A DNA stretch of 64,000 nt from Amphiscolops sp. MND2022. Its lineage: Eukaryota. The notes below the pieces were generated by a model, which saw only the letters and a list, made by a program, of their open reading frames with translations, was not told the DNA's origin and made no database searches. Position numbers and translations under genes: made by a program. Within the stretch, counting starts at the first letter, position 1. Every line of letters starts with the position of its first letter. The stretch spans positions 71,550,001-71,614,000 of the forward strand of contig OZ076409.1 in assembly GCA_964187785.1 (NCBI GenBank). Direction: 5' to 3'. This document shows positions 1-64,000 of this stretch, in pieces.

Positions 1-176
1 CTTAACCGTTATTAGTCCTACCACCTATCATCAGCCTATGCCATGGCCCGGTGATTAGTAGTACAACGCCACATAAAGTAGCGACGCCCACAGTCTGTGG
101 GCATGCCGAGGCATGCCCTTCGACGACGTATGGCAATTTTAGCGTAGCCCGCGGTCACTACCGCGGTAGCAGCTAG
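1..176 (+). mobile_element. Right (3') end of an upstream unit, A-like; the array continues beyond the window start
   Basis: Core hairpin at 99-118 and terminal segment GCCCGCGGTCACTACCGCGGTAGCAGCTAG, which is also the end of the A unit finishing at 10301. Confidence 0.8.
99..118 (+). other. Invariant 3' subterminal hairpin GGGCATGCC-GA-GGCATGCCC (exemplar; 26 copies, one before each of junctions 1-26)
   Basis: Perfect 9-bp inverted repeat inside the conserved block GTCYGTGGGCATGCCGAGGCATGCCCTTCGACGAC, about 35-55 nt upstream of the terminal CTAG. Confidence 0.9.
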
Positions 177-2160
177 GTGGGCGGGGGTAATTCCCCAACA
201 AAAATTACGGCCGGCGGGTTGGGTCCTGCCGGACGTCAAATAGCAAAGAATATCTAGTAGGAAACGGCGACACAGAATCGCGATTTTTAAATCTAACCAC
301 AATTTTTTGGACTTGGAGTGCATGCGGCCCTGAATTGCCCATACGAATCGAAGTTCCTGCTGACATTAAGCGATTGAAATAATATATAGAAAGTTATGGC
401 CCATTTTTCACTCACAAAGAAGGGTAAAATGAGGAAATTTTTAACAAAGTCGCTGATAACTCAAAATGTGTTAATTTTTGGACATTGACTGTGAAACAAG
501 CTCGGAACCTTCATTTCGTGGCTGTGGCATTGCATTGAACACAAAAGATGTAAAGTTTTTACATTTTTTGAAAATTCTAAATTTTTGAAATTTTTTTCAC
601 TACTATCAGTACCCCATATGTCAAAAACGCCTCAGAAAAAATTTTTTATTTGCTTTAAATTGGAAACCTTGGTATCCATGGTTTCTGTCGGATCCTACTC
701 GCAGTCAAACACCCAACAGTTTGCATCCAATGTGGAAATAAAAATTTTTTCGGGGTCATAAGCGTTTCACAAGGATTTCTCAACTTAGTTTCAATTTACA
801 AATTGGTCACATTGAACACATTATTTTCATCGAAGCGCGACAGATACCGCCCTAAAGCTCACGAACGGTCCTACTGGCAACGTAGCAACCATTTATAGTA
901 ATATAAAAGATTAAAAAAATTTTTTCACCCGGTCTCCAGTCATTTTTCAGTCATTCGGAACTTAACTTAGAAAAATTTCGACCAAAATACCCATTTTTTG
1001 TCAGGTCGAAAAATCAAATTCACATTTTTAAGCAAAATTATTAACTCTGACGTAACTCATGGGGCCCATGATACTCAAAACAACGATTGACACTGGTATC
1101 AATGGCTCCAATAACATATGAGTCGCGATCGGACGTTATTTTGAGCAATACGTCTCAATTGAGGTAAAGATCTCGCAAGCCAGCGATCACTGTCAAATGT
1201 GATTTCATCAAAAATTTACTCATTTTTGTCAATCATTATGTGCACAGAATGCGTAGGGTGCGTTTCAGCACTATAATGAGATTTTTCAATGCATCGAGTT
1301 GCTCAAGGGGTGGTACGAGACATTTTTGTCTCATATACTACTGTATTTTCCAAAATTTTTAGCCCAATATCTGGAAATACAAACTTGACAAAATACTTTC
1401 AACTACTTTATTCAAAGGTTACAATATAGATGAACACTGTGGTTGATCAGAAACTTTCATCTCTTTCGTTTTCCGAAATATTTTCCTTCGCATGTGTTAT
1501 ATTTGTATCAGAAAAAAAACGAAACTGAAAAATACGCTATTTTGCTAATATAGAATCGCAATGATTGTGCCTAAAAACTCTTTAAACACTTCTAACGCAA
1601 CCTTACGCACCCAAAATGATCGAAAATGCTATTCACAATGGTGACATGTGCTCTTTCAACGATCCTGGCTGGACAAGGTTTGCATATTTTTCAAGTACCT
1701 GTCAGCTGAATCTTGTGATAGCCTTTTAAGTTGGCCTTGTGTCAACTTGGGAAGGCTATCACATCAAACAACCATCAACAAAAATAATTTTTGTTTATTG
1801 GATATTACAGTTGATACCTTATTTCGTGATTCTATACTACCGTTAGGATATTCCATGAGGTCACCTTACGATTGCATTCAGACTTTGATGAAAACCTATG
1901 AACTCAAAGTCACATTTATATATTTTTTGCCCAAAAAAATCATCAAAAACATCTAATATATATAAAATAGAGTCTTTAACTTTTTTACGTTTCAAGTTTC
2001 TGCCGTTATTAAGCCAATCAACTTCCTACAGCCACGCTCTCTGTCATACTGTACAACGCCACATAGTGTTGCGACGTGCACGGTCTGTGGGCATGCCGAG
2101 GCATGCCCTTCGACGACGTATGCCGAATACCGCGGGCCTACGCCCGCGCTCCCCGGCTAG
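177..2160 (+). mobile_element. Non-autonomous unit, family A (1984 bp)
   Basis: Bounded by CTAG|GTG junctions; colinear with 8313-10301, 44409-46408 and especially 46409-48391. Confidence 0.85.
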
Positions 2161-3540
2161 GTGGCGGGGGTGCCTCATGCCCCTCAAAAAATCACGAGCG
2201 CGGGTAGGGTCCTGCGCGAGTTCAAGAAGTGAAACATCGATATTTCGAAGCAACACTTTTGGAAGCTATCTTTTTTTTGAACCATACGATTTGAACCATT
2301 TTTTGCATGTGGCTTTGGAATCAGGTTATAAGAACTTTTTCCTGCTGACAGTTTAACCGGAAATCATTTGGTGTTGACTTTTGGCCAAAAAACCGGTTAT
2401 AACGTCGAAAATCAACGTTATATCCGAATTGTCGTCGTAACTTTTTTCCAGGGCGTCCTAGCGATTTTTGTTGCTCCTACATTGCGTTGCAGCATGTGAA
2501 AATACATCTGCTGTGAAATTTTGGTTGCAATCGGATCACCCCCCTCCGAGATTGAGGGGTACCCCCCTCCAATTTTACCCCCAAAATTTAGGAAAATGCC
2601 AATTTTGAGCATGAAGCTGTGGATTGAGCGTGTCCGCACCCTGCTGATGGATTGTCGGGCGCATTAAGGTGAATCCGATGACATGTGTAGTTATCACCCC
2701 CAACCCCCCCTGGGACCGGAAATGACCCTTTTATGTGTATTTTGACAGGAAGTTGTGGTTTTCAGTCGTAAGACGTTGTTTTATGTTCGCTTTACAGGGT
2801 ATCAAAGTTGAAACACAGCATGAGAACAACTTAGTGACCACATTTTGGCCAGTCGGGGGTAACGTAATTACCGGAAATAGGGTCGAAACCCCCCAAAATT
2901 GATGTTTTTTGACCATTATGACTCGTTTATTGATCACGTATAGGTCCGATAGGTCTCATTAACTATTGTCAAGATGAACAGCTGATCAATTAACGAAGTC
3001 TTAACGACGCTTTCAGAAACCGGAAGTTACCCCCTTGACCGGAAGTGGTCCATTTTGACCGGAAATGGTGCGAAAAATAGATCATAAACGTCTTTTTTGT
3101 TTAATTTCTGTATACTTTGTCAGATATTTTTGAAATTTTGAAGGTTGTGGTTGAAAGTAGGATTAAAAGACTGAATCGCTGCCGAATGATGATCACCTTT
3201 GTCACCCCCGATAGCCTTCCAAGTTGACTTGGGGTCAAGCTTGAAGGCTATCTGTTATGAAATCAAAAAACAAAGCAGAACCCCCTGTCCCCGTGGTTGT
3301 TAAATTCTGCTTAGATCAGTTCAATGCAGAGAGTACTTTGGTTAAGGTAAACAAATAGCGTTACTTTTACGTTTCTTATAGTTGTTCACCCCCACCCGCC
3401 AAAATTTCATGCACCTCCCCCCTCAGTACAACGCCACATAGCGTTTCGACGCCCACGGTCTGTGGGCATGCCGAGGCATGCCCTTCGACGACATATGCCA
3501 AATGAGCCTTTCCCGCACTCTGGAGTGCGGTAGCGGCTAG
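2161..3540 (+). mobile_element. Non-autonomous unit, family E (1380 bp, single copy in window)
   Basis: Same termini as the other units; distinct interior with an ACCGGAART cluster (3019-3066) and a GATAGCC-type hairpin (3210-3252). Confidence 0.8.
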
Positions 3541-6500
3541 GTGGGGGGGATATATCTCCACTTTTTTTGCGACCGCGGGTAGGGTCCTGTCGGGAGCTTC
3601 TATTTACCAAGCTTACGGCGCTATATACTAGAGAAAATTTTTCCGGCACCGAACTTTTTTTTGAACCATAGGATTTGTACCATTTTTTGCATGCGGCCCT
3701 AATTTGGGCATACAAGACGAAGTTCCTGCTGACGTTAAGCGATGGTTTCATTGTGTAACGAGATATAGCCACTTTTTGGTGCGATTTTTGAGGTATTTTT
3801 GAGAAACTTTTTACAAACAGCTCGAATGCAAAAAATTGAAAAACTTGTGACAATCGACCTATCACTGGTTTAAACCTTCGATTCTTTGCCCTAGCAATGC
3901 ACTAGACCCAAAAGATCTAAAACTTTTACATTTTCCAAAAATTTGACCAAATTGACTCGGGTTTCACTACTATATGTAACCAATGTGACAAAAACACCTC
4001 AGAAAAAAATTTTTATTTGCTTAAATTAAGAAACCTTGGTATCCATGGTTTCTGTCGGAACCTACTCGCAGCCAAACACTCAACAGTTTGCATCCAATGT
4101 GAATTTAAATTTTTTTTCGAGGTCATAGGTGTTTCACAAGGATTTCACAACTTAGTTTCATATTACAAATTGGTCATTTTCAACATCATATTTCCATCGA
4201 GGCATGTCGGATAGAGTCTTATTGCTTACGAACGGTCCTACTGGCAACGTTTTTACCATTTATAGAAATACAAAGTTATAAAAAAATTTTTTCACCCGTT
4301 CTTCCATCATTTTTCAGACATTCGGAACTTATCTTAGAAAAATTTCGTCTCAAAAACCCATTTTTTGTCAGGTCGAAAACTCAAATTCAGCTTTTTAAGC
4401 ACAATTATTAACTCTGACGTAACCAGTGGGGCCCATGATACTCAAAACAACGATTGGGGTTGGTACCATTGGCTCAAATAACATATGAGTCGCGATAAGA
4501 CGTTATTTTTAGCCATACGTCTCAATTGAGGTAAACATCTCGCAAGCCAGGGATCTCTGTGAAATGTGATTTCATCAAAAAGTTACCCAATTTCGCCAAT
4601 TAATATGTGCACAGAGTGCGTAGGGTGAGTTTCAGCACTATAATGAGGTTTTTGAAGGATTCGGGTTGCTCAAAGGGTGGTATGAGACATTTTTTTCCCA
4701 TATACTACTGTATTTTCCAAAAATTTTAGCCCATTATCTGGAAAAACTAACTTGAGAAAATACTTTCAGTTACTCTATTCGAAGCTTAGAATATAGATGA
4801 ACACTGTGGTTGATCAGAAACTATTAACTATTTTGTTTTTAGAAAAAAACTGCCTTGCATGTGTTACATTAGTGGCAGGAAAAACACCAGTAGCTCCAAA
4901 AATCAAAAATTTGGACGGACAGACTTCCAATGATGCAAAACAAAAACGTTTCAACAACTTCTGACGCCACTTTTTTTACCCAAGAGGTTCGAAAACACCA
5001 TTAACAATGCTGACATTCGCAATGAATAAGATCGAGGTCTATTTACTAACACTTAGGTTTTAAATTTTTTTCTCGGAAACCCATTATTGTCAGGTCGCAA
5101 ATTCAAATTTGGTTTTGGAAGCAATACTTTTCACTCTGAAGCAAACCGTTGGGCCCAAAATACTCAACAACAACAAAAAGACTATCACCATATGCTATAA
5201 TAACATATGAGATGCGACTGTATGTTTTTAACACAATAACTCTCATTCTGAAGTAAACATGTTGAAAGCCTTGAATCACCGTGAGAAGTGATTTCATCAA
5301 AAAATATTTCTTTTTCGTCAATCACTGAATACACAGAACCCGTTGTGTTAGTTTCAGTCGTGAAATGAGGTTCTACCGTAATATCGGTTGCTCAAGGTGT
5401 TGTATAAGGCAAAAACTTCCTCTTTTCTACTAACTTCTTCAAATATTTCAACCCTTTGTCACACGAATTTAATATTCAAAATCTCTTTGAATTGTTTCTT
5501 AAGGTTGTGGTGAATTGTTAGAACAATTACTAGGATCGAAGAATGCTAGTATTGGTGTTTGGACCATGTCCGGATGAACAAATCGCAAAATTAAGAAAAA
5601 ATTGTTTCCTTTTTTGGTTATTTTGGCAGTACTAAAAATGTTAGCTGATAAATAATTTTTTCGAAGGCACCATTGGATTCCGCTCAAAAAGTTGATTGTA
5701 AGACATGTGTAATAACCCCGTATCTTTTCAATTTAAATAAATTTAAAAAGCAAACTTTTTTGACGAAAATCCTAAAAATCATACCATTTCCTAAAAAATT
5801 TCAAATGCACTCCATTTGACGTATAAGAATAGCACAGAAAACTATCATATACCGATCAACTCTACTCCCATTGTAGACTATTAGAATTTTGTTTTGATTG
5901 AATTTTTGAAGAATATAAAAAAATTTTGAACCCTCCAAAAATGGACCAAAATTACACGAAAAAATTGACCTTAAAATTTTAAAATGTCAAAAAATCATCA
6001 AAACTACAGCTTCTTGGGGTTCTATCAACTCCACGTGGTCCACAGAGTACGCTAAAACAGGTTTTACCCGTTTTTGAGCAATATGTGAAAAAGCCGACAT
6101 TTTTGGGAAAGAAAAACATACCATTTCCTAAAATACTTCAAATGCACGCCATTTGCCGTATGAGAATAGCACAGAAAACTATCACATACCGATCAACTCT
6201 ACTTTCATTGTAGATGATTAGAAGTTAGTTTAAATGAAAATTAGACGAATAATAAAAAAATATAAATCCTCCAAAAGTGGGCAAAAATTACACGAAAAAA
6301 TTGTCCTTAAAATATTAAAATGTAGAAAAATCATCAAAACCACAGCTTCTTGGGGTTCTATCAACTCCACATGGTCCACAGAGTACGCTAAAACAGGTTT
6401 TACCCGTTTTTGAGCAATATGTGGAAAAACCGACATTTTTGGGAAAGAAAAACATAACATTTCCTAAAAAAATTCACATGCACGCCAATTGGCGTATAAG

Positions 6501-8312
6501 AATAGCACAGAAAACTATCATATACCGATCAACTCTACTCCTATTGTAGATTATTAGAACTTTGTTTTGAATGAATTTTGATGGATAATAAAAAATTTTG
6601 AACCCTCCGAAAATGGGCTAAAATTACACGAAAAAATTGACCCTAAAATTTTAAAATGTCTAAAAATCATCAAAACCACAGCTTCTTGAGGTTCTATCAA
6701 CTCCACATGGCCCACAGAGTATGCCAAACCAGGTTTTGCGCGTTTTTGAGCAAAATTTAGGAAAGCCGATTTTTTTTGAGGAAGAAAAACATATCATTTC
6801 CTAAAAAACTTTAAATGCACGCCATTTGGCGTATAACAATAGCACAGAAAACTATCACATACCAATCAACTCTACTCTTTTTGTAGATTACCAGAAGTTT
6901 GCTAAGAATAACTTTTGATGAATATTTATAAATTTTAAACCCTCCTAATATGGGCCAAAATCACACGGAAAAATTGACCCTAAGTATTAAAATGTCAGAT
7001 ATTCATCAAAACCCCAGCTTCTTGGGGTTCTATCATTTCCATATGACTTTCAGAGTATACCAAACAAGTTATTAACATTGGGCGATAATTAAAAAGACCA
7101 ATTTTATTCTGAAGAAAACCATAATATGTTCAATATAAGAAGTGAATCATTCCACATATATACCCTGTCTGATATTCTAAATTAGCAAAAATATATATAC
7201 TTGAAGTTTTTTGAATGTGAGCTTCATTAAAGGTTGAGATGTGATAATACGTAAATGGATTCCAAGTTTCATCGAAAAGTCAATGGAATAGGTCCAATCA
7301 ACTTCAATCTTAACAATTCGATAACAAAAAACACTTAAGTACATTCCATCTCCCTATCGGGGAGATGAGAATGTACTTTTCAAAAACTAAAAACTTAGAT
7401 CTTTCTATCTTTTGTAACACTTACTGTAACAGCTGAAATGATGAAAGAATAATTATTCTTCTAATAACTTCAAGATTTTTTGCTTCACCTTTCATTTCTG
7501 CAGAACAAAACCATAAGACATACATATTTTTCGCAGTTAAGTTCGACTGTATTACCCAGTGAACAAAGGTATGACAGGAAGATTACAAGTTGTCTCAAAA
7601 CTTTCCCGCCTTCCAAAATCATGAAACGTCTACACAACCAAGATAGTAAAGGAATGAATGTGGAATGCATCATTTTAGTTAAAATAAATAACGTGTAGAA
7701 CTTACCTTTATCTGAAGATGACGTTGATTTATGATCTTTAGAGGATAGTTCAATTTTTGACCATAATAGTGCGAAACTAATTATTATATGAATAATGGCG
7801 TGGAAAGCGTTCAGAAATTGCAGTATTTTCGATTCGAGCATGTATGCGTGGGTTCCTTTGGTGGCATTAGCTTAGTGTACATGATAGAAGTTTTCGATCT
7901 ATTATGATAAAATTTACTCACAAGTCTTTGTTTTTCCTATTTTTTTATGCCATTAAGTACATTCATTCTATCCCCTTCTCTGGGAATGTACGTTTGCCAA
8001 ATGACTGTCATCCAAATTTTGCATTCGCGAAGAGTTTAAATACATAAACACGTCTTTAGCGTTTCCAAATCACAACCGATTAACATTTTTTAAAATTTTT
8101 TTTTATGAAAATTGATAATTTGTTTTGATTTTGGTATCTTCTACTTTTATCATCCATCATAACAAGCACCTTACCATGTCTCTCGCTTGTCTTCATTTTA
8201 CAACGCCACATAGCGTTCCGACTCCCACCGTCTGTGGGCATGCCGAGGCATGCCCTTCGACGACGTATGCCAACTACTTTTTATATCTACACCCGATTGC
8301 GGTAGCGACTAG
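3541..8312 (+). mobile_element. Non-autonomous unit, family A' (4772 bp)
   Basis: First ~1.3 kb homologous to family A, then internal duplications and a distinct 3' part; second copy at 39645-44408. Confidence 0.85.
5781..7130 (+). repeat. Internal tandem repeat, about 4 x ~337 bp, within A'
   Basis: CATTTCCTAAAA...ATGCAC...AATAGCACAGAAAACTATCA...CAGCTTCTTGRGGTTCTATCA recurs from about 5781, 6118, 6455 and 6790; boundaries approximate. Confidence 0.8.
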
Positions 8313-10301
8313 GTGGGCGGGGGTAATTCCCCAACAAAAAAATCGGCCGGCGGGTCGGGTCCTGCCGGCCGTCCAAAATCAAAATTATACTAGTAGAAAA
8401 CGGCCGGTCAAACGAGCTATTTTTTTATTTAACCGTTAGAATTTGGGTTTAGATTGCATGCGGCCATGAAATGGCCATACGAATCGAAGTTCCTGCTGAC
8501 GTTTTGCGATTGAAACACTTTATAAAAAGTTATGGCCAATTTGTCAGTCACCTAGAAGGGCAAAATGAGGAAAATTTTAACAAAGTCGCTGATATCTCAA
8601 AATGTGTTAATTTTTGGACTTTGACTGTGAAACAAGCTTGGAACCTTCATTTCGTGGCTGTGGCATTGCACTGAACACAAAAGCTGTAAAGTTTTCACAT
8701 TTTTTGAAAATTCGACATTTTTGAAATTTTTTCACTACTATCAGTACCCCATATGTCAAAAACACCTCAGAAAAAATTTTTTATTTGCTTTAAGTTGGAA
8801 ACCTTGGTATCCATGGTTTCTGTCGGAACCTACTCGCAGCCAAACACCCAACAGTTTGCATCCAATGTGAAATAAAAAATTTTTTCGAGGTCATAAGCGT
8901 TTCACAAGGTTTTCATGATTTAGTATTAAATTACATAGTGGTCATTTTAAACATAAAATTTTGGTCCAGGCATGTCGGATATAGTCTGAATGCTCACGAA
9001 CGGTCCTACTGGCAACGTAGGAACCATTTATAGTAATAAAAAGTATTAAAAATTTTTTTTCACCCGGTCTTCAGTCATTTTTCAGATATTCGGAACTTAA
9101 CTTAGAAAATTTTCGAACCAAATACCCATTTTTTGTCAGGTCGAAAATTAAAATTCAGCTATTAAAGCAAAATTTTTTACTCTGACGTAACCAGTGGGGT
9201 CCATGATACTCAAAAATACGATTGGGACTGGTACCAATGGCTCCTATATCATATGAGCCGCGATAAGACGTTATTTTGAGCAATACGTCTCAATTGAGGT
9301 AAACATCTCGCAAGCCTGGGATCACAGTGAAATGTAATTTCATCAAAAAATTACTCATTTTCGTCAATGACTATGTGCATAGAGTGGGTAGGGTGAGTTC
9401 CAACACTATAATGAGGTTTTTGAAGGCATCGGGTTGCTCAAGGGGTGGTATGAGTCATTACTTTCCTATATACAACTGTATTTTCAAAAACTTTTAGCCC
9501 ATTATCTGGAAAAACTAACTTGACAAAATACTTTCAATTACTTTATTCAAAGGTTACAATATAGATGAACACTGTGGTTGATCAGAAACTTTCATCTCTT
9601 TCGTTTTCCGAAATAACTCCTTTCAAATGTGTTACATTTGTAGCAGGAAAAAAAACTGAAACTAAAAAATACGCAATTTTGCTGAGATAGAATCGCAATG
9701 GTTGCGCCTAAAATCTCTTTAAAAACTTCTAACGCAACCTTACGGACCCAAAATGATTGAAAATGCCATTCACAATGCTGACATGTGCTCTTTCTACGAT
9801 CCTGGCTGGACAAGTTTTGCATTTTTTTCAAGTACCTGTTAACTGAACATTGTGATAGCCTTTCAAGTTGGCCTTGTGTCAACTTGGGAAGGCTGTCACA
9901 TCAAAAAACTGTCAACAAAAATACCATTTGTTTATAGGATATTGCTGTCGATGCTTCACTTCGTGATTCGATCATGTCGTGAGTTCCTTCCATCAGGTCA
10001 GCTAACATTTGGATTCAGTGTTGGATAAGAACCTATGATTTTCATGACAATTTTCGTTTTTTTTTTGCCAACAAAAAGTACAAATAAATGATATAAAACA
10101 TATTTGTAACCTCTAGGAAGTTTAACTTTACCTTTTTTACCGTTACCATCTTAACCCACCCCCTACGACCTCGCAGTGTCCTCATTACAACGCCACATAG
10201 TGTAGCGACGCCCACAGTCTGTGGGCATGCCGAGGCATGCCCTTCGACGACGTATGGCAAATATAGCGTTAGCCCGCGGTCACTACCGCGGTAGCAGCTA
10301 G
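8313..10301 (+). mobile_element. Non-autonomous unit, family A (1989 bp)
   Basis: CTAG|GTG boundaries; colinear with 177-2160. Confidence 0.85.
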
Positions 10302-51600: not shown

Positions 51601-52298
51601 GTGGTCAGTGCTGTTGCGTTCATTTTTTTCCGGCCGTGGGGGAGGGCCCCTCTGAGGCCGGTCATTTTTCAGGTGACAGCTTTCTTATACAAAAAACCGG
51701 GAAAAAACCTCAGTGCTCAAATCCCAACCGTCAGAATGAGCTGAAATTTGGCATGTAGCTAGTGCATTGCAAATGATTAGGATGGGTTATAACGCTATGT
51801 TTGGCAAAATTGGTTTTGTTGCGTTTTTTTGTCATATAGGGCTAAAAATGGCCTTTTTTGCGTATTTTTTGCTTGACAAGCTAATAACTCGCGTTGGGTT
51901 GATACTAGCGATACGGGTGTGGGGTAGGGAATTGTAAGATTACCAAGTACCTTGCTGATCACGTTATTTGATTTCCGCCCACATCACCCCCCACGCCGGA
52001 AATGCCCAATTTGTCACTTCCGGTCGCAATTTTTGACTTTTTTGGATGGAGTCAAAACCCATTTCCGGTGTGAAGGAGTGGGTTGAGCGCTCTGACCACG
52101 ATATACTAAAAGTAGGTTTAGACAAAGTCCTTTCAAGAAAAAAGTAATGTGAGCCCGTAACTATCACCCCCTCACCGGAAATAGGGGTCACGCCTCCTTT
52201 TTCTGTGTTGCAAAAGTGACAAGTGCACATTTGTCCAACTCCGAAGCCCCGGAGCACCGTGGGACCCTTATACTTTCTAAACACCAATCCCACACGCT

Positions 52299-52349
52299 AC
52301 CGGAAGTGACCGGAAGTTTCACCGGAAATGACATCCTCGGACCGGAAAT
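52299..52349 (+). promoter_or_regulatory. Cluster of four ACCGGAA(G/A)T motifs (ETS-consensus-like or Rep iterons)
   Basis: ACCGGAAGT at 52299 and 52309, ACCGGAAAT at 52321 and 52341, about 0.5 kb upstream of the SGNH ATG; function is inferred. Confidence 0.35.
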
Positions 52350-52835
52350 GCTCAAAAAATGACTTTTTCAATAAAAAATAGACACTTTTGGTGCAATTTT
52401 TAGGCAAAAAGCATAATTCGTGATACGCTTGTTGCAGTTGAAAGGGCCATTGTTCAGCAAGAATGCATACAGCATTACGTAGCACATCAAGTAGTTGATA
52501 ATGTTTGTTATTAGATAGTTATTTGAATTGGTCGTTCTACTTCAAGCTGTATCTAATATGGTATTGTAATATGAATTTTCAATCGTTTACTTTTTCGCCT
52601 CTGCTTGTAAGACACGTCTGACGTGTATCTTACCTGCTTGCAAAAGTTTCTCCCAACGTACGCATTTTTGAAATTATGGTTTAATTTCGATAATTTTTGA
52701 CATGAAGGATTTTCTTTTTTGCAATGTTCCATTGTTGTCAACTAGTGAACACATTGTATTTTTCAGACCCTAATTTCATCAAGATTCCATTCATCAAGAT
52801 TTTCTCCTAATTTTGCATAACAAGATAATATAAAG

Positions 52836-53414
52836 ATGGCTGATAAGTAAGTTTGTTTCTGTTTTGAGTAATTCACATTTCCTTCCAGTGATCGAGTTCA
52901 TCTATGAATTTGGTTTAGCACAATTATAATCGGTGACAGTCATGTCGTGCGGATGAGGCACGCTGTCAATTCTCCGGAAAATACATTCGTGGAGAGACGA
53001 CCAGATGTTTATTTCAAAGGAATTTCTGGCCTAAAGGCCCAAGATCTCTGGTGGTTCGAAGCCCATGTTGCGGATTTTCATACGGTCGTCATCTGTGTTG
53101 GTGGCAACGATGTATCTCCTCATCCAACGAACCCTTTACACACACCAATTACTCCAGCAGAAACAGCTGCAGCAATAACGGCGTTTGCTCTCAATTTGAA
53201 CAATCCCAGAGTCTTTGTTTGCAGTACCATCCAGCGCATAACAGCGATTCAAGAAATAAAACAAGTCAATAGCATATTATTAAGAACATTCAATCATCGT
53301 TTCATTGGATTGGGAGAGTTAATCAAGAATAACAAAGTGGACAAAGTTGATAACGTGCATTATAACCACATGACGTATCGAAGAGTGTATCAGAAAATTG
53401 TTTCACGGTTGTAA
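52836..53414 (+). CDS. SGNH/GDSL-family hydrolase (esterase), ~168 aa; predicted join(52836..52846,52919..53414)
   Basis: Block I IIIGDSH (just upstream of and in frame with ORF 52947-53414), block II GISG, block III VGGND, block V DNVH. ATGGCTGATAA|GTAAGT...TTTAG|C gives an in-frame 72-nt GT-AG intron (MADNTIIIGDSHV...). Confidence 0.8.
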
Positions 53415-54676
53415 TATTGGAAATTGTTGATAATCTGTTATAATGTGAATTCATAAAGTTCCCTGCGCTACGATTGTCGTAGTTAGCTTTAGTCGTTTCA
53501 ATTGTTTTAAATTAGCTTTTTTTCTCACTTTTTTCAAGTATTCCTAATATTGAGTTATGTGTACATGGGAGAAACTTTTGCATGAGGCTATAGTGTACTA
53601 ACCAAATTGTATTTGTGGGGCCTACAATTTGGGTAGTTTCCTTTCCTTGCAATTACATTGTACTTGAGTTGTACAATGCATTGCAGGATTTGGTAACAGA
53701 TGAATTGATTTAGGTATTATCTGGACACGTATGACGTGCTCCTTCTCATAAGTTAAGTGTTTTTCTCATTCAAAAGTCTCATTTCAGCTCTCATTAAATG
53801 TACTTATAAAATGTACTAGGTGTTTTCCTCGAGGAGTACGTTTGACGTGCACCTCTCTAGGTTTTTTACACTAAATTGAAATATCTTTTCCAGCCATTTT
53901 TCAAATCATCCAAATCAACATCAATTTTTATCAATATCAATTTTGCAATATTATACAGTTCGTAGTTCTATGAAAAGCAAAATAGACGTTTTTCAATTGT
54001 TTACATTCGGGCTTGCGTTACGCTTCGAGAATGCACCATGAACTCTTCAAGCACGGAACATTTTTCGTCGGTTTTTAAGTTGGAAGTGCATTTTGCTGCA
54101 ATGTTCGATCAAAAGTATCTTGAATAACGCAAATAATTTTTCGCATTTAATTAACGTCTCATTGTGAAACTTTCTCCTGGTCCATTTTGTCATCATGCTT
54201 GATCTTTTTTCATTCCAAGTTGTTTGGCCAGTATGTTTGATATTTTTGATTCCAAATTCTGGAGCACTGTTCTCGTTATGTTTGCATAATTTTTTTCGAA
54301 TCACCTACTTTAACAATGTCGATGAACTATGGCCGTTTGAGGTTATACTTTTTATCTACTGACAGGGGACGGTTCTTTTTCCAGATTTTTTTGTCATCGA
54401 AAATGCCAGCCAGTAGTGGGGGAGGACGTAAGGTAATCATGTTTTTTTTTAATACGATCAACGTTGTTGTGAACAAAACTAATGTTCGCTTATCTTTAGA
54501 GGAAAAAGACAGAACAACTTCGTTGTTCCTATTGTGGAAGATTTCCTCCAACAGATGCTATATTTTGTGAGAATTGCGCAACACGACAACTGGCGAGCTG
54601 CGAAAAGGTAACCCATTGAGAATCCGAATTTTTTAAAATCCACCTGAGGCATTGGATAAACACATTCTGTTTTCAG

Positions 54677-57600
54677 ATGCAGCTTCATTTGCGAAATACG
54701 TTGACCCCAAATTCCCTAAAAAGTTTGATTTTCGCCAAGTTTATTTTGATTTTGATTATGAAAAAGTTCCGATTCAAAAATCTGTTTTTCTTAGGTTTCG
54801 TGCGAACTGCTGATGGGTCGCTGCCTCTAGTCACTATGAATCTCCAGCAAAGACAGCGTATAACAACTATACTTGGTTTGAAGAAAACATCGATTCTTTT
54901 TCCAGAAATTCACACAGAAATCTTTTTATCTGATGTAATGGAATTAGTTGTCAAGTCATCGGAATCCCAAGAGGAATCGTTCGTCGAATCACTGTCCTAC
55001 TCAATGACCGGAACAATCAATAATGGCCCTCGGTTCAAAGAATTTTGTTCTTTGCTTATAGAAACAAACAACACTTGTTTCGATGATGAATGTCAATGCT
55101 TATTTCTGCAAAGTCTCGGTTTGGGCAATTTATCAAGTTCACTATCTCTAGAATTGAGGAAATTACTCAACTTTGTTGTTTTTTGGAACATTAGTTGCTG
55201 TTTATACTGCAAAAACACAGATTCGTGGTTGCAAGTTGGGCCTAATAAGGTCCAAAGTTTTTTTTTGAAACTTGAAGGACATTTTTGGTCAGCTGTTGTT
55301 TCCATGGGTTCACAAGTTCCTGATGATGCATTGAATAATTCGACAGCGTTATCAAATTTACAATTTGAAGATGAGAGCCGTCATGACAATAAAACCTCAT
55401 CAGAGAAGGAAGGCGTAAATGGTGCGTCTCCGTTGCATTCAGAAAATGAAAATTGTTCACACCTTCCATCTTCTGAAACTCCGGATGGTGAACTTGTTGA
55501 AGATGCAATCAGGTTCGTACAAGTTGACGTCCCATTTGAAACGAATTGTTATAAGCTTTCCAGTGTACCTCCACTTGACCCTCATGTAGCCAACTGTTGC
55601 CAGAAATGTCTACGCTGGGCAACCTCCGAGAAACCATTTCAGCTACAACAACGGAATGTATCAGAATTAATCTGTCGTAATTTAGGAGCTCGTCTCCCTC
55701 AGAGCGCGAACGTTAACTTGTGCAGTCAATGTTGTCACTATTGTGAGAAAGGACATGCTAGATCTCAGTGGAGTGATGCTTGGCCGTCATTCTTCGCCTC
55801 ACTTTTGTTTGACAAAGGCTGCCCGAGGATTGTTCTAGACATAGTTGCAAAACTTTTGCCGGCTTCCTTTTTCGCGTTTTGGCGTGGCCATCCCAGCATG
55901 AATACTATTGATTCTTCGCGATGTCCAATACTCACCGATGTTACCCAGAGGCATGATAGAACAAGGCAGCTTATGCGATGCGATTCCTATTCCGACATTG
56001 AATCTCTTTTGAGAACGGAGGATTTCCCGTATTGTCGATGTCCATTTGGTTGTACAGAGTTCGTCGAAAAAATTAAAACAATACCTTTTCATCATTTCCT
56101 CAACAAGTTCTTCCCTTTTTTAAACAATTGCGGTGCTTCATGGCAAAAAACGTTGAAAGGAGCTAGGACAGATTTTTTGCAGAAGTTTGTTTATTTGGAA
56201 CAATTCGAAATTTCACCTGCTTTCATGATCACTGATTCAGGTGGTTTGGGACTCGTTACTTGTAGTGATGATTCACACGCCAAGGGTTCCAAACTGCAAT
56301 TTGTTCATGTCCCAGTTAATCCTGTTTCTGGACACGTTCCACCGCGGCACTGCAATAGATTGGCGGCTGCTGTACCGACAATAAAAAATTTCACCAATGA
56401 AAAACTGAGTTACAACTGCCATCAGTTCCGTTTGATTGAATTGAGTGGAAATTTCAATGGCTTGAGTACTGTCAGATTGACAAAGAAACGAAGATGGGAT
56501 GTCACCAATCAGCGACTTGCTGAATCAGAAGCCCAAATTCTAGGCCAACGGTCTGATCTGGTTTCTAATGTTAGTAAATTGGTGATGGCAGGTGAACTTG
56601 TTCCTCCTGTAGCCCAGTCGCTTCTCAAATTGAGTGCTTCCACTACACAGGACTTGTCAAAGCTACCCGATAGCACTGTCATTATTAACGCAGATTCTGT
56701 TCACTATCACCCGACGTCCCGTTCACTCAACTCTTGTCCAGTTAAGCAACTTGTTGCACATCCTGTTGACGCTCATGGTGCTACCCCTTTTCCAATAAAT
56801 CACTTGCATCCCGGTAAACTTTTAAACTGGGCTGTGAGTGTCGTTTGCAATTGTAATTTCAAAATGCGAACAAAATTGAAAGAGAATGCAGATCCAGCCT
56901 TGGTGCAAGTGTTTAAAAGTTCTCTAACATGCTGCGTTAATAAAAATAAGACTGATTCACTGGGACCTCAAACTGGACCGAGAGAAATTGCACATTATCT
57001 GGTGCAAAATTTTTACAACGTTGTGCATTCAGAAGCCAGCTCGTTTGACGAACTTGGTTTGCAAAACAAAAAGGCTGATGTCACGTCAACTGACATCTTG
57101 ATCTTTTCTCGCAATTCCACTCATCGTAATCAGAATCAAATCTCAGTGCCTTTCATTCTGGAAGACAATGATGACACATTCGAATTGGTATTGATCATGT
57201 CAATTACACGTGATCACAAAAGCTTAGCTCTTTCGCGATATGGAGGTTGTTTCAATTTGTTCTGGGAATTTCATAGTGATCTGGATTTTCCGTTCAAAAA
57301 TTTATTGGAACCTTGTGATGCGATTTCGTCGGGTTTTGACGGTAGGTGGTCTCTCGTGGTCTACAATCGAATTCCGAAGATCAGCGTGACGGAATATTTT
57401 CTAGACAATTGCCTTGGACAAAATAAACTGTTTTGTTCAGTGCACAAATTGCCTTTGATAGTTAGAAACATTAAAGGCGGAATTAGTTGTAATTCTTGCA
57501 CTTTGAAAGCCTGTTTGAGTTGCCCTGTCGGAACATGTTCTGCTGCGGTTTGTCGCAAGCATCTCAAGTTCTTTCGTGATGGACACGACGAGAAACACTA

Positions 57601-60600
57601 TATTCATCCTATCACAACTGAAGTTGATTTTGACGTAATTACCAAAACAAGTGACGCGGTCGATCCACTTGGTTCCTTTGGAGACGACAAAACTGATTTT
57701 CACGCTATTGCAAACACCGGTGTTACCATGGTTGATTCAAGTGACGATGAATCACCACAACTAGAAAGTAACAGTGGAGTTGTTCCACAGTTCGCTGAGG
57801 TATCCGACGACGTGAACGGTGCGACGCCGTGTCATTGGTTACTGAACGGAGTTTGTGGTTTGTTACAACGTGGGACAAAAATAACCCTATCTAAGGTTCA
57901 TCAACGCTTCATGGAAAACTTGACTGCTACAACGCCTGGTAACACGGTACCACTGAACGACATCGAAGCTTTACTTTATCCATCGATCTTTTATCATCAG
58001 CTTCAAGATGGCAGTTATCCTGGCTGTCTACCAGCGGCTTTAATGTCTGGAGGAGCTGTTAACAAACAGCTGGGTTTCCATACTATGGCGGATCACATGA
58101 CTCTGAGGATGAAAGATGCGTCATTGTTAACCAGTGGTAGTCAAGACTATTTGCAATTTGCATTCGATGCATGCTTCAATTTAGCACTCGAAACAACGGA
58201 TAACAGGTTTGTTTTGGAACGCGGTCTTCAAGAAGCTGATCTAAAAACACAAGAAAATTATATTAGACGTCATGCCAAACTGAACTTCGACGCTCAAGAT
58301 TCCCGTGCACACGTTTTACAGCTCGCTGCCGCGTTGAGAAAGAAACAAGCTACATATTTTTTCACATACACCTGCAACCAAAGTCAACATCCTGGCGTGT
58401 CTTCTTTATTCAATGCAATTGAAAAGAAGTACCCTGGTCAAATCACGGAGAAAGCTATCAAAGCTGATGCAGTGAATGCTGAAATGGTCATGCTGCTGCG
58501 GATCTGGCAAAGAGCTTCTAGCCTAGTGATGACTTACATTGAGAAGTCTAGTGAGCAACCTTTGGGCCCTGTACAAGAACTGTGGTATAGATATGAGTTT
58601 CAGGACAAAGCTGGCGCACTTCCACACATCCATGCTGTGATTTGGACGCACGAAGATCCATTTTCGTGCGAAGTTCGAGAGAGGATTGTATGTGAAACAC
58701 CGCGCTTTCGAGGAGAACTGGTGAAAAAATTGGCAGAACTTGGATTAGAAAAATCTCTCAGTGAAATAAACGACTTGTGTGAACTGTTCGGAATTGTCCA
58801 AACTCACAACTGCGAAGCTGCGAAGAGAAGATGTTGCAAGGAAACAGAAAGACATGGTGTCGTCTGTCGTGTTCCGAAATATCCTGCTTCATTAGAATAC
58901 TCTTACAAACCTGTTTACCATCGCTTTTCTGAGGAGTGCGTAGATCTTTTAATGAGTATGGATTTAGCTCATTTCAATGATACGGTATGCCGTGTCATAG
59001 CGAGTGCTGAACTAGCTGGAGGAAAACATCACTATCCTGCTTCTTATCGTGAACATATTTCACCGACTAACCCTCTGATTTTTTCTCTGATTAAATCGAG
59101 CTGTAACGTTCAAATCTGCGATCCATATTTGAGCGCGCGTTACATTGCCAAATACGCAGCGGGTGTTGAAGTGAGAAGTACAGTAACTCTAAAAGCAGGT
59201 AGCCAATCTAATGTGTTGGGAGCAACTGAATCAGATTTGAAAAATGAAAAAATTACTGGCGTCAGGTTTCACTCAAACAATGAAGAAGGAAAAGTAGTGG
59301 GACGAAAAATTAGTTCAACTGAATGTGCCTGGTGGCTTTTAGATTTTCCATACGTGTTTTCAAACATTGAGTTCATACACATTCCGACAACCCCCAAACG
59401 TTTCAGACCAGGATTTTACCACAGGAAGAAAGTGCCAAATCACCAGTTCACCTCATCTGGTTGTAATTTGAACGACTCGCGGACTGATCTGCCTGCTTGG
59501 AGGCAGTTCACCAGCTATCAAATTCGAACATTACAAGAAGAAACTAATTCGATGTTGACTGTCGACAAGGTTACCATTTTTAGTTTGAGACCCCCTGAAC
59601 TCTTGTTTGTCGATAACATGGAAAGCTATTTCTCGTTTTTCAAACAGCTGCCGTTGAAAAAAGCCAATTTGAGAAAGTTTGCCCACAAACAGCTCGACAA
59701 GTCACTCTTGGTCGATGGAATGGGCTATGCTGTTAAAATTCGTTCTAATCAGTTGCTGACTTTTCAAAGTTTCACAGAATCTTCGGACTCAATAATTTTG
59801 ACTTCTGAAATGAAACAATTTGTTTCTGGTTTGAGAGGTAAGCATTTGCGACATGTTTGGCACTCTCCTACAAAGTACGTTGTCACATATTTCAGTGAAG
59901 TCGAACCCCGAAATTTTTCACGTTTTCTCTGTCATATTTTACTTTCACTGGGTCATTTTCAAACAGAAATAGAAGTTTTCAGTGGGAAGTCGATGCTTAA
60001 ATCCTTTGAAATAGTGAAGCTTGTTTCCAATTGCCAAAATGTCAATCGAAATGAAGTATTAACTATTTTGAAAAATTATCTTTTGAGCCAATTGAAGTTC
60101 TGTCCTGGATCAAGCAAGGTTCTAGACAAAAGTTTGTTGGATGCCGACTTTATTCTGAGTGGCTTGCTATTGAAAAAAGAAATGAGTTTCAATGAAGTGC
60201 CTATTGTTTACGACAGTCACTTGCAATCAGTTATCTCAGATGAATGCGCCAAGCTCTGGAATGACCTTAAAGAGAACCAACTTCGTTCGATTCTGGAGTA
60301 TTGTTCGGACTTACCACCGCCAGAAGTTGTTGTTAGAGCTACTTTGTCAAACCAGGTTCCATGGAAACCCCTTCTGAATAAATTGGAAAAACAGAGCACC
60401 GAAAGTTTCTTAGAACAGACAATGGTGCTAGGTTCAGTTCTTGAGGCAGTGGACAACCTTGTTTCGGGACAATATCCGTTCGTCAAACACCAAATCCTGA
60501 CAGGTCCTCCTGGTACAGGAAAAACGTTTTTGCTTTGTCAAGCCCTTGCGTATTCCATGTGCAAAGGTTTGTTTCCTGTTGTAACCAGCTTAGCGTCAGA

Positions 60601-62257
60601 GCGGGCTAGTTCATTTGGTGGTGTTCACCTGGATAAGCTTCTTCCATTCCCTATTGACAAAAACATTAATCCCTATGAGCTGGCTTCCAGAGCCATTGAA
60701 AAACTTGTCTGCCGTCCTTCTAGAATCATGTTCTTGAGTAAAATTCACGTGCTCTTCGTGGAGGAACTGTCAATGATCTCTGCAGAAAAATGGCTTGCCG
60801 CGGATTTAGTTTTCCAGTTTCTGTCAGACAAAAAAATACCTTTTGGAGGACGTCTTGTGATAGCTAGCGCTGATTTCAAACAACTTCCTCCTCCCAACGG
60901 CACCATGTTACTCCTTGAACCCTCCATTCTCACCCTTTCTAAATTTCATGTTTTGCGTCAGTTTGTGAGAATGGAACAAGAACAAGGTCAACGACTACTG
61001 CAACTTATGCGCAAGACCCAGTTGACTCCGGAGGAAATCATCGAGGTAACTCGAATTATCCGAGAAAACTGTAATTTTGTGAGGTCTTGGAGCGAAGTCC
61101 CAGTGAATGCAATCAGAGTTGTTGCTACTAGAGAAGCTGAAATCAAGGCAATAAAAGACAAAATTGCTGACCTGCAGTCCAGGCAAATTGACGTTTTCAC
61201 TTGTAAAGCCAAAGATGAGGTAGCTTGTTCTGGCCTGAATGAATGGCAGAACGCGTCTTCAAAAGTGACCAATAAATTGAATAGAATTGTAAACGAACCT
61301 GAAGAACTGACTGTCTTCAAAGGTGCACTTTTGCGTTTTACGGCCAATTTACACGCTAATGATGTGTCCCAGGGCCAGCTGTGTTTGGTGAAAAATCTTC
61401 ATTTTGATGAGAAGACATTGCAAAGCCTTGATGTTATTGTTGTTCCACCAGGAGTTCGAGATCTTGAGTCCTGCAGCGAAGACCTCATTAAACAATGGCC
61501 CGTGCTTTCATTGAAACGTTCGACAGGAATTTCCCAAAAATTTGGCATTCGATATATTCGTCGCATTCAATTTCCTGTTAAATATCACGCAGGTGCTACA
61601 GTACATAAATCAATGGGATCCACTGTGGCTTGCCTGGGAACAACGCTGAGACAAGATATTAGAGACTACAGGCTTTGGTGCCGAGCCCAATTGTACGTCC
61701 TGTTCAGTAGAGTCCGCAAACACAACGATATATACCTCGTTTCATCACAAAACACGATGGAGTCAACTGTATCTGAACTTCTGACGAAACGAACTGAAGA
61801 AGACGAATTTTTAGACGAACTTTTCCGATATATTGAGAATGACACTAACAGTTCCATTGTAATAAACCAGTTTGCTGTTTCCCCGCTTTTTCCTAGTGGG
61901 TTGAGAATTCCCACCACAAATGTTGGATTTGTTTTCATTTTACGAAGTCTCAGACATCCGACTGAAATATATGTAGGGGAATGTGTCAAGTTGGATCGAG
62001 CTTTGAAACAACACAATTCAGGTCAAGGCAATGAACTAACGAACTGCTATAAATACAGACCCTGGGGTATTGCTTTGTATGTGTTCGGGTTTAGTTCCAC
62101 AAGTGAAAGTCAAAACTTTTTAAAAAGGAAGACACTGCAGATGCGAGTTACATCGGAGTTGGAAAGAAAAAAGACCCAACGCATTGTACTGAATTTGGAC
62201 TGTTTACGAGCAGCTGTTTCCGGTAAATGTCTATCACAGAAACTGATTTTCAATTAG
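54677..62257 (+). CDS. Helitron-like RepHel transposase: Cys-rich N-terminus, HUH/Y2 Rep, PIF1-like SF1B helicase, C-terminal GIY-YIG domain (2526-aa ORF; true start and last exon uncertain)
   Basis: Rep motif I YFFTYTCN (58355-58378), motif II RYEFQDKAGALPHIHAVIW (HIH 58625-58633), motif III YIAKY (59141-59155). Helicase GPPGTGKT (60503-60526), FVEELSMIS, ADFKQLPP, RIQFPVKYHAGATVHKSMGSTV, QLYVLFSRV. GIY-YIG-like GFVFILRS...IYVGECVKLDRALKQHNSG...RPW (~61922-62090). Confidence 0.92.
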   Translation: MQLHLRNTLTPNSLKSLIFAKFILILIMKKFRFKNLFFLGFVRTADGSLPLVTMNLQQRQRITTILGLKKTSILFPEIHTEIFLSDVMELVVKSSESQEESFVESLSYSMTGTINNGPRFKEFCSLLIETNNTCFDDECQCLFLQSLGLGNLSSSLSLELRKLLNFVVFWNISCCLYCKNTDSWLQVGPNKVQSFFLKLEGHFWSAVVSMGSQVPDDALNNSTALSNLQFEDESRHDNKTSSEKEGVNGASPLHSENENCSHLPSSETPDGELVEDAIRFVQVDVPFETNCYKLSSVPPLDPHVANCCQKCLRWATSEKPFQLQQRNVSELICRNLGARLPQSANVNLCSQCCHYCEKGHARSQWSDAWPSFFASLLFDKGCPRIVLDIVAKLLPASFFAFWRGHPSMNTIDSSRCPILTDVTQRHDRTRQLMRCDSYSDIESLLRTEDFPYCRCPFGCTEFVEKIKTIPFHHFLNKFFPFLNNCGASWQKTLKGARTDFLQKFVYLEQFEISPAFMITDSGGLGLVTCSDDSHAKGSKLQFVHVPVNPVSGHVPPRHCNRLAAAVPTIKNFTNEKLSYNCHQFRLIELSGNFNGLSTVRLTKKRRWDVTNQRLAESEAQILGQRSDLVSNVSKLVMAGELVPPVAQSLLKLSASTTQDLSKLPDSTVIINADSVHYHPTSRSLNSCPVKQLVAHPVDAHGATPFPINHLHPGKLLNWAVSVVCNCNFKMRTKLKENADPALVQVFKSSLTCCVNKNKTDSLGPQTGPREIAHYLVQNFYNVVHSEASSFDELGLQNKKADVTSTDILIFSRNSTHRNQNQISVPFILEDNDDTFELVLIMSITRDHKSLALSRYGGCFNLFWEFHSDLDFPFKNLLEPCDAISSGFDGRWSLVVYNRIPKISVTEYFLDNCLGQNKLFCSVHKLPLIVRNIKGGISCNSCTLKACLSCPVGTCSAAVCRKHLKFFRDGHDEKHYIHPITTEVDFDVITKTSDAVDPLGSFGDDKTDFHAIANTGVTMVDSSDDESPQLESNSGVVPQFAEVSDDVNGATPCHWLLNGVCGLLQRGTKITLSKVHQRFMENLTATTPGNTVPLNDIEALLYPSIFYHQLQDGSYPGCLPAALMSGGAVNKQLGFHTMADHMTLRMKDASLLTSGSQDYLQFAFDACFNLALETTDNRFVLERGLQEADLKTQENYIRRHAKLNFDAQDSRAHVLQLAAALRKKQATYFFTYTCNQSQHPGVSSLFNAIEKKYPGQITEKAIKADAVNAEMVMLLRIWQRASSLVMTYIEKSSEQPLGPVQELWYRYEFQDKAGALPHIHAVIWTHEDPFSCEVRERIVCETPRFRGELVKKLAELGLEKSLSEINDLCELFGIVQTHNCEAAKRRCCKETERHGVVCRVPKYPASLEYSYKPVYHRFSEECVDLLMSMDLAHFNDTVCRVIASAELAGGKHHYPASYREHISPTNPLIFSLIKSSCNVQICDPYLSARYIAKYAAGVEVRSTVTLKAGSQSNVLGATESDLKNEKITGVRFHSNNEEGKVVGRKISSTECAWWLLDFPYVFSNIEFIHIPTTPKRFRPGFYHRKKVPNHQFTSSGCNLNDSRTDLPAWRQFTSYQIRTLQEETNSMLTVDKVTIFSLRPPELLFVDNMESYFSFFKQLPLKKANLRKFAHKQLDKSLLVDGMGYAVKIRSNQLLTFQSFTESSDSIILTSEMKQFVSGLRGKHLRHVWHSPTKYVVTYFSEVEPRNFSRFLCHILLSLGHFQTEIEVFSGKSMLKSFEIVKLVSNCQNVNRNEVLTILKNYLLSQLKFCPGSSKVLDKSLLDADFILSGLLLKKEMSFNEVPIVYDSHLQSVISDECAKLWNDLKENQLRSILEYCSDLPPPEVVVRATLSNQVPWKPLLNKLEKQSTESFLEQTMVLGSVLEAVDNLVSGQYPFVKHQILTGPPGTGKTFLLCQALAYSMCKGLFPVVTSLASERASSFGGVHLDKLLPFPIDKNINPYELASRAIEKLVCRPSRIMFLSKIHVLFVEELSMISAEKWLAADLVFQFLSDKKIPFGGRLVIASADFKQLPPPNGTMLLLEPSILTLSKFHVLRQFVRMEQEQGQRLLQLMRKTQLTPEEIIEVTRIIRENCNFVRSWSEVPVNAIRVVATREAEIKAIKDKIADLQSRQIDVFTCKAKDEVACSGLNEWQNASSKVTNKLNRIVNEPEELTVFKGALLRFTANLHANDVSQGQLCLVKNLHFDEKTLQSLDVIVVPPGVRDLESCSEDLIKQWPVLSLKRSTGISQKFGIRYIRRIQFPVKYHAGATVHKSMGSTVACLGTTLRQDIRDYRLWCRAQLYVLFSRVRKHNDIYLVSSQNTMESTVSELLTKRTEEDEFLDELFRYIENDTNSSIVINQFAVSPLFPSGLRIPTTNVGFVFILRSLRHPTEIYVGECVKLDRALKQHNSGQGNELTNCYKYRPWGIALYVFGFSSTSESQNFLKRKTLQMRVTSELERKKTQRIVLNLDCLRAAVSGKCLSQKLIFN

Positions 62258-63999: not shown

Positions 64000-64000
64000 T

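Follow-up and report, generated by a model that had tools for sequence, protein, structure and literature searches.

Eukaryotic Helitrons and their relatives, the Helitron-like elements (HLE), are told apart by their ends and by the sites into which they insert: as defined in the HELIANO account, HLE1 begin with 5′ TC and insert between A and T, HLE2 carry inverted repeats and insert between T and T, and at least four extra clusters, from 19 genomes, are labelled "unclassified" (PMC11417382). Circles with precise head-to-tail joints have been described for the Helitron Helraiser (PMC4778049), and IS91 is described as inserting without duplication, with a target CTTG beside its ori and a cleavage site CTCG at its ter (PMC13181058). 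The window studied here is the whole stretch of 64,000 nucleotides at positions 71,550,001-71,614,000 of contig OZ076409.1 (C1 below), in the 1.07-Gb assembly GCA_964187785.1 of Amphiscolops sp. MND2022, the single assembly analysed. It holds an array of abutting non-coding units, followed by an autonomous element that encodes a RepHel protein. The explanation that we favour, with a probability of about 0.72, is a divergent Helitron-like lineage whose Rep would cut and join after the CTNG of CTNG|DT, in its target as well as at its own ends, the joints between units (called seams hereafter) being the preferred acceptors; active targeting of seams is what the sequence patterns suggest.

The heptamer CTAGGTG occurs 30 times on the plus strand of the window and once on the minus strand, where dinucleotide content predicts about 1.6 per strand. 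Unit junctions account for 29 of the 30 plus-strand copies (173 to 51597, the last seam spanning 51597-51603); the remaining one, at 53816, is internal to the RepHel element, has none of the terminal motifs and is not a junction. Cut at CTAG|GTG, positions 177-51,600 resolve into 28 whole units of 1.07, 1.28-1.29, 1.38, 1.97-2.00 and 4.77 kb, in a single orientation and with zero intervening DNA, which bears out the sequence-only reading of more than 51 kb of abutting same-orientation units free of host DNA, as well as its start of the RepHel element at the 51600/51601 junction. The six non-coding families that it counted are eight when families are defined at 70% mutual coverage, and about six once related ones are merged: the 1.28-1.29 kb groups have 35-60% in common, and those of 4.77 and 2.0 kb have 64-85%. 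A scan for open reading frames (ORFs) found no frame of 165 amino acids (aa) or more within 1-51,600. The array extends past the window on both sides; its parts are as follows.

1-51600, plus strand: array of 28 whole non-autonomous units and, at 1-176, part of another, joined at CTAG|GTG
173-179, plus strand: example of a seam, CTAG|GTG, with the cut placed at 176/177 from solo copies and empty sites
177-235, plus strand: example of a left end, GTG, then a family-specific stem around a conserved loop of the GGG(T/G)AGGG(T/C)CC type
2089-2160, plus strand: example of a right end, made up of the 20-nt palindrome, TTCGACGAC, a tip that is specific to the family and often forms a second hairpin, and CTAG at the end
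177-2160, plus strand: unit of the 2.0 kb family, with further copies at 8313-10301, 44409-46408 and 46409-48391
2161-3540, plus strand: unit of the 1.38 kb family, the one copy in the window
3541-8312, plus strand: unit of the 4.77 kb family, a relative of the 2.0 kb family, with a second copy at 39645-44408
10302-11585, plus strand: unit of the 1.28 kb family
11586-21449, plus strand: run of five 1.97 kb family units, neighbours 4.5-12% divergent, with a second run of four at 31756-39644
21450-31755, plus strand: eight consecutive units of 1.28-1.29 kb, of which seven belong to one family and one (26603-27884) to a related family
48392-51600, plus strand: three 1.07 kb family units, with the usual left-end architecture and a different, palindrome-free right end

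The 4.77 kb units carry an internal 336-bp tandem repeat (5775-7035; 41877-43135). The arrangement between 11586 and 39644 is nested, with five 1.97 kb, eight 1.29 kb and four 1.97 kb units in succession, flanked on both sides by 4.77 and 2.0 kb units.

Unit ends were compared in a sample of 144 units, split at seams. Every unit begins with GTG, and a conserved loop follows some 30-55 nt from the start, held by a stem specific to each family: stems of at least 5 bp are formed by a unit's own arms in 52% of cases (27 distinct arms) versus 8% for mismatched arms. At the right end, 118 of the 144 show the 20-nt palindrome, TTCGACGAC, a family-specific tip of 30-47 nt and CTAG. The terminal architecture that the sequence-only reading called shared is so at the left; at the right, the palindrome is missing from the 1.07 kb family (0/8). 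Similarly, the joint CTAG|GTG, first given as universal, covers the 29 window seams but not the right end of the RepHel element, which reads CTGG|GTG at window-equivalent position 65,683; since 11 of the sampled units end with CTGG and 133 with CTAG (a set fixed by the construction of the split), the seam consensus becomes CTRG|GTG.

Ends that lie outside seams tell what the target looks like. The dinucleotide that follows 60 free right ends is GT in 29, AT in 20, TT in 8 and another in 3; T stands at +2 after the element in 58 of them, and the flank opens with G, A or T. Ahead of 60 left ends that lack a preceding CTAG, picked by YG, non-G and DTAG searches, the commonest bases are CTTG (21) and CTCG (8). 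One solo copy lies in a host repeat that offers empty sites, as the element is missing, with a direct join, in 14/14 paralogues (13 CTTG|GT, 1 ATTG|GT); another empty site reads CTTG|AT, and two within unit interiors read CTTG|GT and CTGG|GT. Among seven loci with both flanks, none has a target-site duplication; four read CTNG|DT, and the rest TTAG|GT, TTTA|GT and GTCC|TT. Free ends, empty sites and two-flank loci, therefore, give a usual host target, CTNG|DT, that matches the element's own seam, and they indicate that the element is GTG...CTRG, inserted precisely at CTNG|DT without duplication.

Other ways of drawing the element were rejected: a boundary one base leftward (GGTG...CTA), since bases other than G are also found before left ends; a target duplication read from CTNG...CTAG, since the left flank differs from the element end; and terminal inverted repeats, since the longest own inverted match in 24 families (5-8 nt) equals between-family matches. 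We also observed a TYA-type class of left ends (CTCA, TTCA, TTTA), mostly from families absent from the window, with one empty site TTTA|GT, as well as short 5′ unit fragments joined straight to the next GTG, several of them stopping at an internal CTTG; such fragments may come from early termination or from insertion with deletion.

The window is a small part of a much larger array, which occupies about 6 Mb of C1 (about 70.45-76.46 Mb), an extent that rests on spaced 5-kb samples rather than on continuous coverage: plus-strand seams were found in 12/12 samples between 70.45 and 76.2 Mb and in 0/8 outside. At least two inverted pieces lie inside it. At C1 70,454,837, possibly at or near its left edge, stands a seam-like CTAG|GTG whose left flank resembles what we take to be a reverse-transcriptase coding stretch. 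Genome-wide, a Rep query has at least 137 matches: 36 in the C1 array (31-100% identical, 36/36 on the plus strand), 17 at the end of contig C2, 10 near the start of C3, 4 on C4 and 3 on C7. Arrays occupy mixed positions, with one interstitial block and two near contig ends. The C2 cluster (102.0-103.9 Mb, extending to the contig end) has one strand switch, with 8 minus then 9 plus Rep matches, and so does that of C3 (2.4-3.95 Mb), with 3 minus then 7 plus; a single switch in each makes them two arrays pointing away from each other. Whole RepHel-bearing units of different families were seam-bound at both ends in 9/9 cases inspected, three of the nine taking in an adjacent unit whose left end was missed by the pattern.

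At the level of single ends, a right-end 29-mer occurs 4,239 times in the genome (3,389 forward, 850 reverse). The base count after the terminal CTAG of 4,237 matched right ends, which covers palindrome-bearing families only, holds one end in two lists and scores a host flank starting with GTG as a seam, gives GTG in 4,157 (98.1%), non-G in 43, GT plus non-G in 34 and G plus non-T in 3. Left ends follow CTAG in 3,339 cases, YG in 42, non-G in 28 and DTAG in 2, ends after CTGG standing outside this count. The sequence-only reading had the lineage use its own junction as integration target and held that copies mostly dispersed singly at unrelated targets would speak against this. Such dispersal is not what the genome displays, and the rare host insertions lie at seam-like sites; the target claim itself survives as a preference, as host CTNG|DT sites are used too.

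The orientation bias of the 29-mer would fit repeats having been chained via a shared terminal motif by the assembler. We consider such an artefact extremely improbable: the shared seam is just 7 bases long, the units on either side of it are heterologous and divergent, the same ends are seen where a solo copy lies in host DNA and its paralogues are empty, and arrays or free ends are present on at least 13 large contigs.

One has to keep in mind how many host sites are on offer: about 5.5 million CTNG|DT and, as a very rough figure, 56,000 CTAGGTG genome-wide (from 77 kb of host DNA with 4 CTAGGTG matches). With millions of such sites and about 80 free right ends versus 4,157 seams, the short motif alone is insufficient to explain the bias. 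Selection or chromatin could in principle do so without any targeting, elements inserting at any CTNG|DT and surviving mostly among existing elements; large gene-free arrays are plausible neutral zones, and some interior insertions exist. However, the same stretches of DNA offer, in the same orientation, about 3.4 interior CTNGDT sites for each seam, and these are almost unused: the 144 sampled units hold 494 on the sense strand with no clear insertion, although a few interior insertions exist genome-wide. The antisense strand would be equally neutral, yet the Rep matches of the C1 array all share one strand, and canonical Helitrons persist dispersed in the same genome, with a maximum of 3 per 2 Mb of 71 matches versus 21 of 137 for the array Reps. 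Selection or chromatin only is, thus, very unlikely. Long open frames are found among the dispersed canonical copies, which include both HLE1-like and HLE2-like Helitrons.

Who neighbours whom bears on array growth. Different families meet at 74 of 124 seams, and in 20 of the 21 heterologous seams tested, the tip that follows the shared palindrome belongs to the family of the body before it, which argues for joining at the seam rather than crossover in shared sequence. The closest relative of a unit is adjacent in only 5 of 70 units. Units less than 1% apart have a near-identical neighbour in common on 0/24 sides, and a 99% identical copy of the window RepHel element on C4 has another left neighbour. 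Since neighbours are rarely closest relatives and near-identical units are differently flanked, insertion of monomers at seams is preferred over concatemers. A concatemer origin, in which Rep would overrun right ends by 3′-end bypass and move several units together, is the mechanism proposed for Helitron arrays of plants, bat and silkworm in the reports describing them (PMC12628747, PMC4067079), and the few units that stop early at an internal CTTG and run into the next GTG would fit loose end recognition. Against it, adjacent same-family units have median distances of 9-18% in six of the seven families and are not nearer to each other than expected by chance (4/49 pairs less than 3% apart, 4.9 expected); units keep their full length and both ends, which those of the truncated plant arrays do not; and bypass copies existing seams and makes no new heterologous ones. 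We, thus, hold this origin to be improbable, and the stacking of different families announced by the sequence-only reading stands, concatemers and block duplication both fitting the neighbour comparison poorly. A putative avoidance of identical neighbours found no support (adjacent distance 12.9 versus 12.5 permuted, p 0.24).

Several observations weigh against a purely seam-targeted growth, and most of them would suit a homology-driven one, with a weak CTNG|DT preference, monomer circles recombining into homologous units, and unequal crossover and gene conversion doing the rest. Same-family neighbours are enriched (50 of 124 seams versus 29.9 ± 3.6 after shuffling); two of four tested families, those of 1.29 and 1.97 kb, are mosaic, their 5′ and 3′ distances correlating with a rho of 0.08 and 0.10; among units less than 2% apart, a neighbour is co-duplicated on 4 of 81 sides, in two blocks, to which one identical non-adjacent pair can be added. 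Homology-driven processes, thus, act as well, and much of the copy number is possibly theirs. In addition, what the window RepHel element has in common with most non-coding families comes down to some 70 bp at the right end; among the 60 left ends without a CTAG before them, 31 depart from CTYG, several of them as truncations or mutated seams; and neither the TYA|GT class nor the GTCC|TT locus fits CTNG. Homology as the sole driver is nevertheless unlikely, though the least so of the alternatives: the families that meet at heterologous seams have little in common beyond their ends, the tip that stays with its own body places the exchange at the seam, and RepHel families that are 31-53% identical in Rep are all seam-bound. 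The same-family enrichment probably reflects both a preference of Rep for seams of its own subgroup and copies added by homologous recombination. A subgroup with a CTGG right end and no palindrome is clustered on C1 at 3.59-3.64 Mb (families of about 1.04 kb and two RepHel units of 15-20 kb, grouping with the 1.07 kb family), and this clustering suggests subgroup-specific seam choice. Local tandem duplications that take in host flank and element end were also seen (C7 56.626-56.631 Mb; C4 37.52 Mb).

Returning to seam targeting, it can be pictured from what is known of HUH enzymes, Helraiser and IS91 in particular. The two-tyrosine Rep would nick the left end, displace a strand and make a second nick after CTRG, peeling off a monomer for direct transfer or resolving a monomer circle with a CTRG|GTG joint before transfer to the target. 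A seam would be the ideal acceptor, as it equals the circle joint and presents the nick sequence between candidate Rep binding signals, the right-end palindrome and the left-end hairpin; it would beat other targets by orders of magnitude. One insertion would turn a single seam into two, keep orientation and leave both neighbours intact, so that arrays would grow in proportion to their size, outcompete host sites and gather every family sharing these ends, whether autonomous or non-autonomous. Rare insertions at host CTNG|DT sites would seed new loci, and same-family recombination would afterwards produce mosaics and occasional block duplications.

The autonomous element starts inside the window and is completed beyond it; its features are the following.

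51601-64000, onward to window-equivalent 65,683, plus strand: autonomous element, 14,083 bp, with a right end made of palindrome and CTGG|GTG
52908-53414, plus strand: frame of 168 aa upstream of RepHel, with SGNH/GDSL-hydrolase-like motifs (Lipase_GDSL_2 E 0.037, below cut-off)
54620-62257, plus strand: RepHel ORF, 2,545 aa from stop to stop in an intron-free reading
58355-59155, plus strand: HUH Rep core, with motif I at residues 1246-1252, H1336/H1338 and Y1508/Y1512
60413-61714, plus strand: Pif1-type SF1B helicase
61925-62110, plus strand: C-terminal GIY-YIG (SLX1-like) domain, below the Pfam cut-off in the window copy
63697-64000, onward to window-equivalent 64,732 in two frames, plus strand: start of a second conserved gene, with homologues of 310-440 aa

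Pfam sees RepHel poorly (Helitron_like_N 33.8 bits, PIF1 27.7), the clade scoring 34 bits versus 205 for canonical copies. Motif I, the HUH pair and the two tyrosines are invariant or nearly so in sets of 24 and 112 relatives, the tyrosines being strictly invariant across the 24 aligned proteins. The predicted fold of the Rep region (predicted local distance difference test, pLDDT, 80.5) is Helraiser-like: it matches 7lcc_A with Z 16.7 and a root-mean-square deviation of 3.8 over 315 residues, the next match having Z 6.4, and Foldseek gives E 5e-7. The GIY-YIG domain, which resembles SLX1, is above the Pfam cut-off in 11 of 18 relatives. The window copy has RA where 10 of 18 pattern-matched relatives have RR, the second arginine of which is presumably catalytic; that this domain trims flaps or branches is a guess on our part. 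The second gene recurs downstream of RepHel in families of this genome and at four metagenome loci. It has no usable match in the ESM Atlas or in a profile search of PDB sequences; a model (mean pLDDT 63) places its predicted OB domains near RPA, CST and MCM10 by fold search, and the gene probably supplies single-strand binding. The SGNH/GDSL-like frame is confined to the RepHel family of the window among the loci compared.

Quick trees were built from Rep plus helicase (35 rows) and from the helicase (38 rows), with references labelled HLE1-like or HLE2-like from motifs and Pfam; 12 named proteins, rows in which no motif was matched and the larger part of the 150 + 120 matches were set aside. 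In both trees, 19 clade proteins fall on one side of a branch (Shimodaira-Hasegawa-like approximate likelihood ratio test 100 and 99), separate from the HLE1-like references and outside the 7-8 HLE2-like rows, which do not cover subgroups a-d or proto-Helentron, the root being unresolved. Rooting with one viral helicase leaves the three groups in no settled order, and the stem to HLE2 is shorter than that to HLE1 in the concatenated tree. With this small HLE2 sample and the root not fixed, the clade may be a deep sister of HLE2.

The clade is broad: matches with E up to 1e-30 form 173 clusters at 50% identity. Many matches from a search of ENA probably belong to the same species as the window. 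Relatives elsewhere (seven metagenome loci, where clade matches are 27-35% identical, one helicase-only viral locus and one contig of a metagenome-assembled genome) are too short for element ends or arrays to be read. The last of these, a 2.5 kb contig in a bacterial bin that encodes part of a RepHel with 47% identity, is probably eukaryotic DNA. One metagenome contig has, just after RepHel, a 7.1 kb stretch with 147-bp inverted ends and the OB-fold gene inside on the opposite strand.

How do the array elements compare with described systems? They are Helitron-like in the broad sense, with a two-tyrosine (Y2) HUH Rep fused to an SF1B Pif1 helicase and no target-site duplication. With HLE1 and Helraiser (PDB 7LCC), as these are described, they share the Y2 HUH-Pif1 protein, the predicted Rep fold and a 3′ end made of a hairpin and CTRR, visible here in the hairpins and solo ends, and further the lack of target duplication, a T usually near the 3′ flank, an RPA-like accessory gene and head-to-tail joints, which for Helraiser are known from circles (PMC4778049, PMC11417382). 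They lack the 5′ TC and A|T insertion of HLE1: ends defined by empty sites start with GTG, the target is CTNG|DT, the left-end hairpin has a conserved loop, a GIY-YIG domain is fused to RepHel, and the tree group is separate. Unlike Helraiser, for which no clustering near donors is reported, about 98% of array-element ends lie in seams (PMC4778049, PMC11417382). Long RepHel ORFs are shared with HLE2, Helentron and Helitron2, as is an OTU domain in a few relatives, and the proto-Helentron is also described with a 5′ stem-loop and a 3′ CTAG (PMC11417382, PMC4067079). The array elements differ from HLE2 in that short terminal inverted repeats, an APE endonuclease and DUF6570 (0/19 clade proteins; 4/7 HLE2-like references) are absent and the target is neither T|T nor A|T, and in both trees they stay separate from the HLE2-like rows sampled.

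Third-clade Helitrons of Paramecium, as reported, are alike in a placement apart from HLE1 and HLE2 (for the array elements, from the rows sampled), in sequence-directed insertion with fixed orientation, and in last four bases that match the target repeat; they differ in that this target is the host telomeric repeat, with repeats left between copies (PMC13085455), whereas that of the array elements appears to be their own seam. The flanks of the array elements are other units or ordinary host DNA, with no telomeric-repeat insertion. One Paramecium ORF, compared by eye and outside the trees, has the shorter HLE-type HUH spacing and ends after the helicase without GIY-YIG (PMC13085455). IS91 is closest in logic: its Y2 HUH protein, insertion without duplication by a tetranucleotide resembling its own terminal cleavage site and subterminal palindromes all find a counterpart here, and its ori-ter joints, known from circles, would be matched by the seam, but it is bacterial and small, has no fused helicase, and multi-family megabase arrays are no part of its description (PMC13181058); we speak of shared logic and claim no homology. 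Replitrons are set apart by a Y1 Rep, no helicase and terminal direct repeats in their description (PMC10288648), against two tyrosines and a helicase in the array elements.

Tandem Helitron arrays reported from plants, bat, silkworm, Xenopus, Hydractinia and Meloidogyne mostly repeat one, often truncated, unit or mix Helitron and satellite (PMC12628747, PMC4067079, PMC12001565, PMC11934779, PMC13404089). Unlike those, the arrays described here bring together tens of families, some of them autonomous, in full-length units, with seam joining as the rule. Mixed-family, single-orientation, head-to-tail arrays built unit by unit are otherwise those of HeT-A/TART/TAHRE in Drosophila, which are mentioned in PMC11934779, and of integron cassettes. 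The former use retrotransposition onto chromosome ends and the latter a tyrosine recombinase at attI/attC, whereas an HUH transposase and internal seams are at play here, so that the parallel is one of analogy only. Literature searches returned no description of seam-joined multi-family arrays or of the clade; Repbase, Dfam and the HELIANO supplements were outside these searches, so absence from print is not established.

Beyond the sequence-only reading, it appears that divergent autonomous families share arrays, that their transposases fall outside the HLE1-like and HLE2-like references sampled, and that within-family recombination reshapes units. We would put at about even odds the wider proposal of an undescribed, widespread Rep-Pif1-GIY-YIG and OB-fold clade that would read the whole seam, with at least 10 autonomous families and their derivatives building an integron-like landing pad for themselves, possibly heterochromatin or centromere by now. 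The prevailing view is that Helitrons insert at dinucleotides almost anywhere and that their arrays result from runaway rolling-circle copying. A target choice apparently tied to the element's own joint would link eukaryotic Helitrons to the tetranucleotide logic of IS91-type elements, and a transposase that stacks cassettes of 1-17 kb directionally at a short, regenerated seam would interest genome engineering. Through such elements, transposons could turn directly into satellite-like domains of several megabases, and mobile DNA would have a way to avoid host genes.

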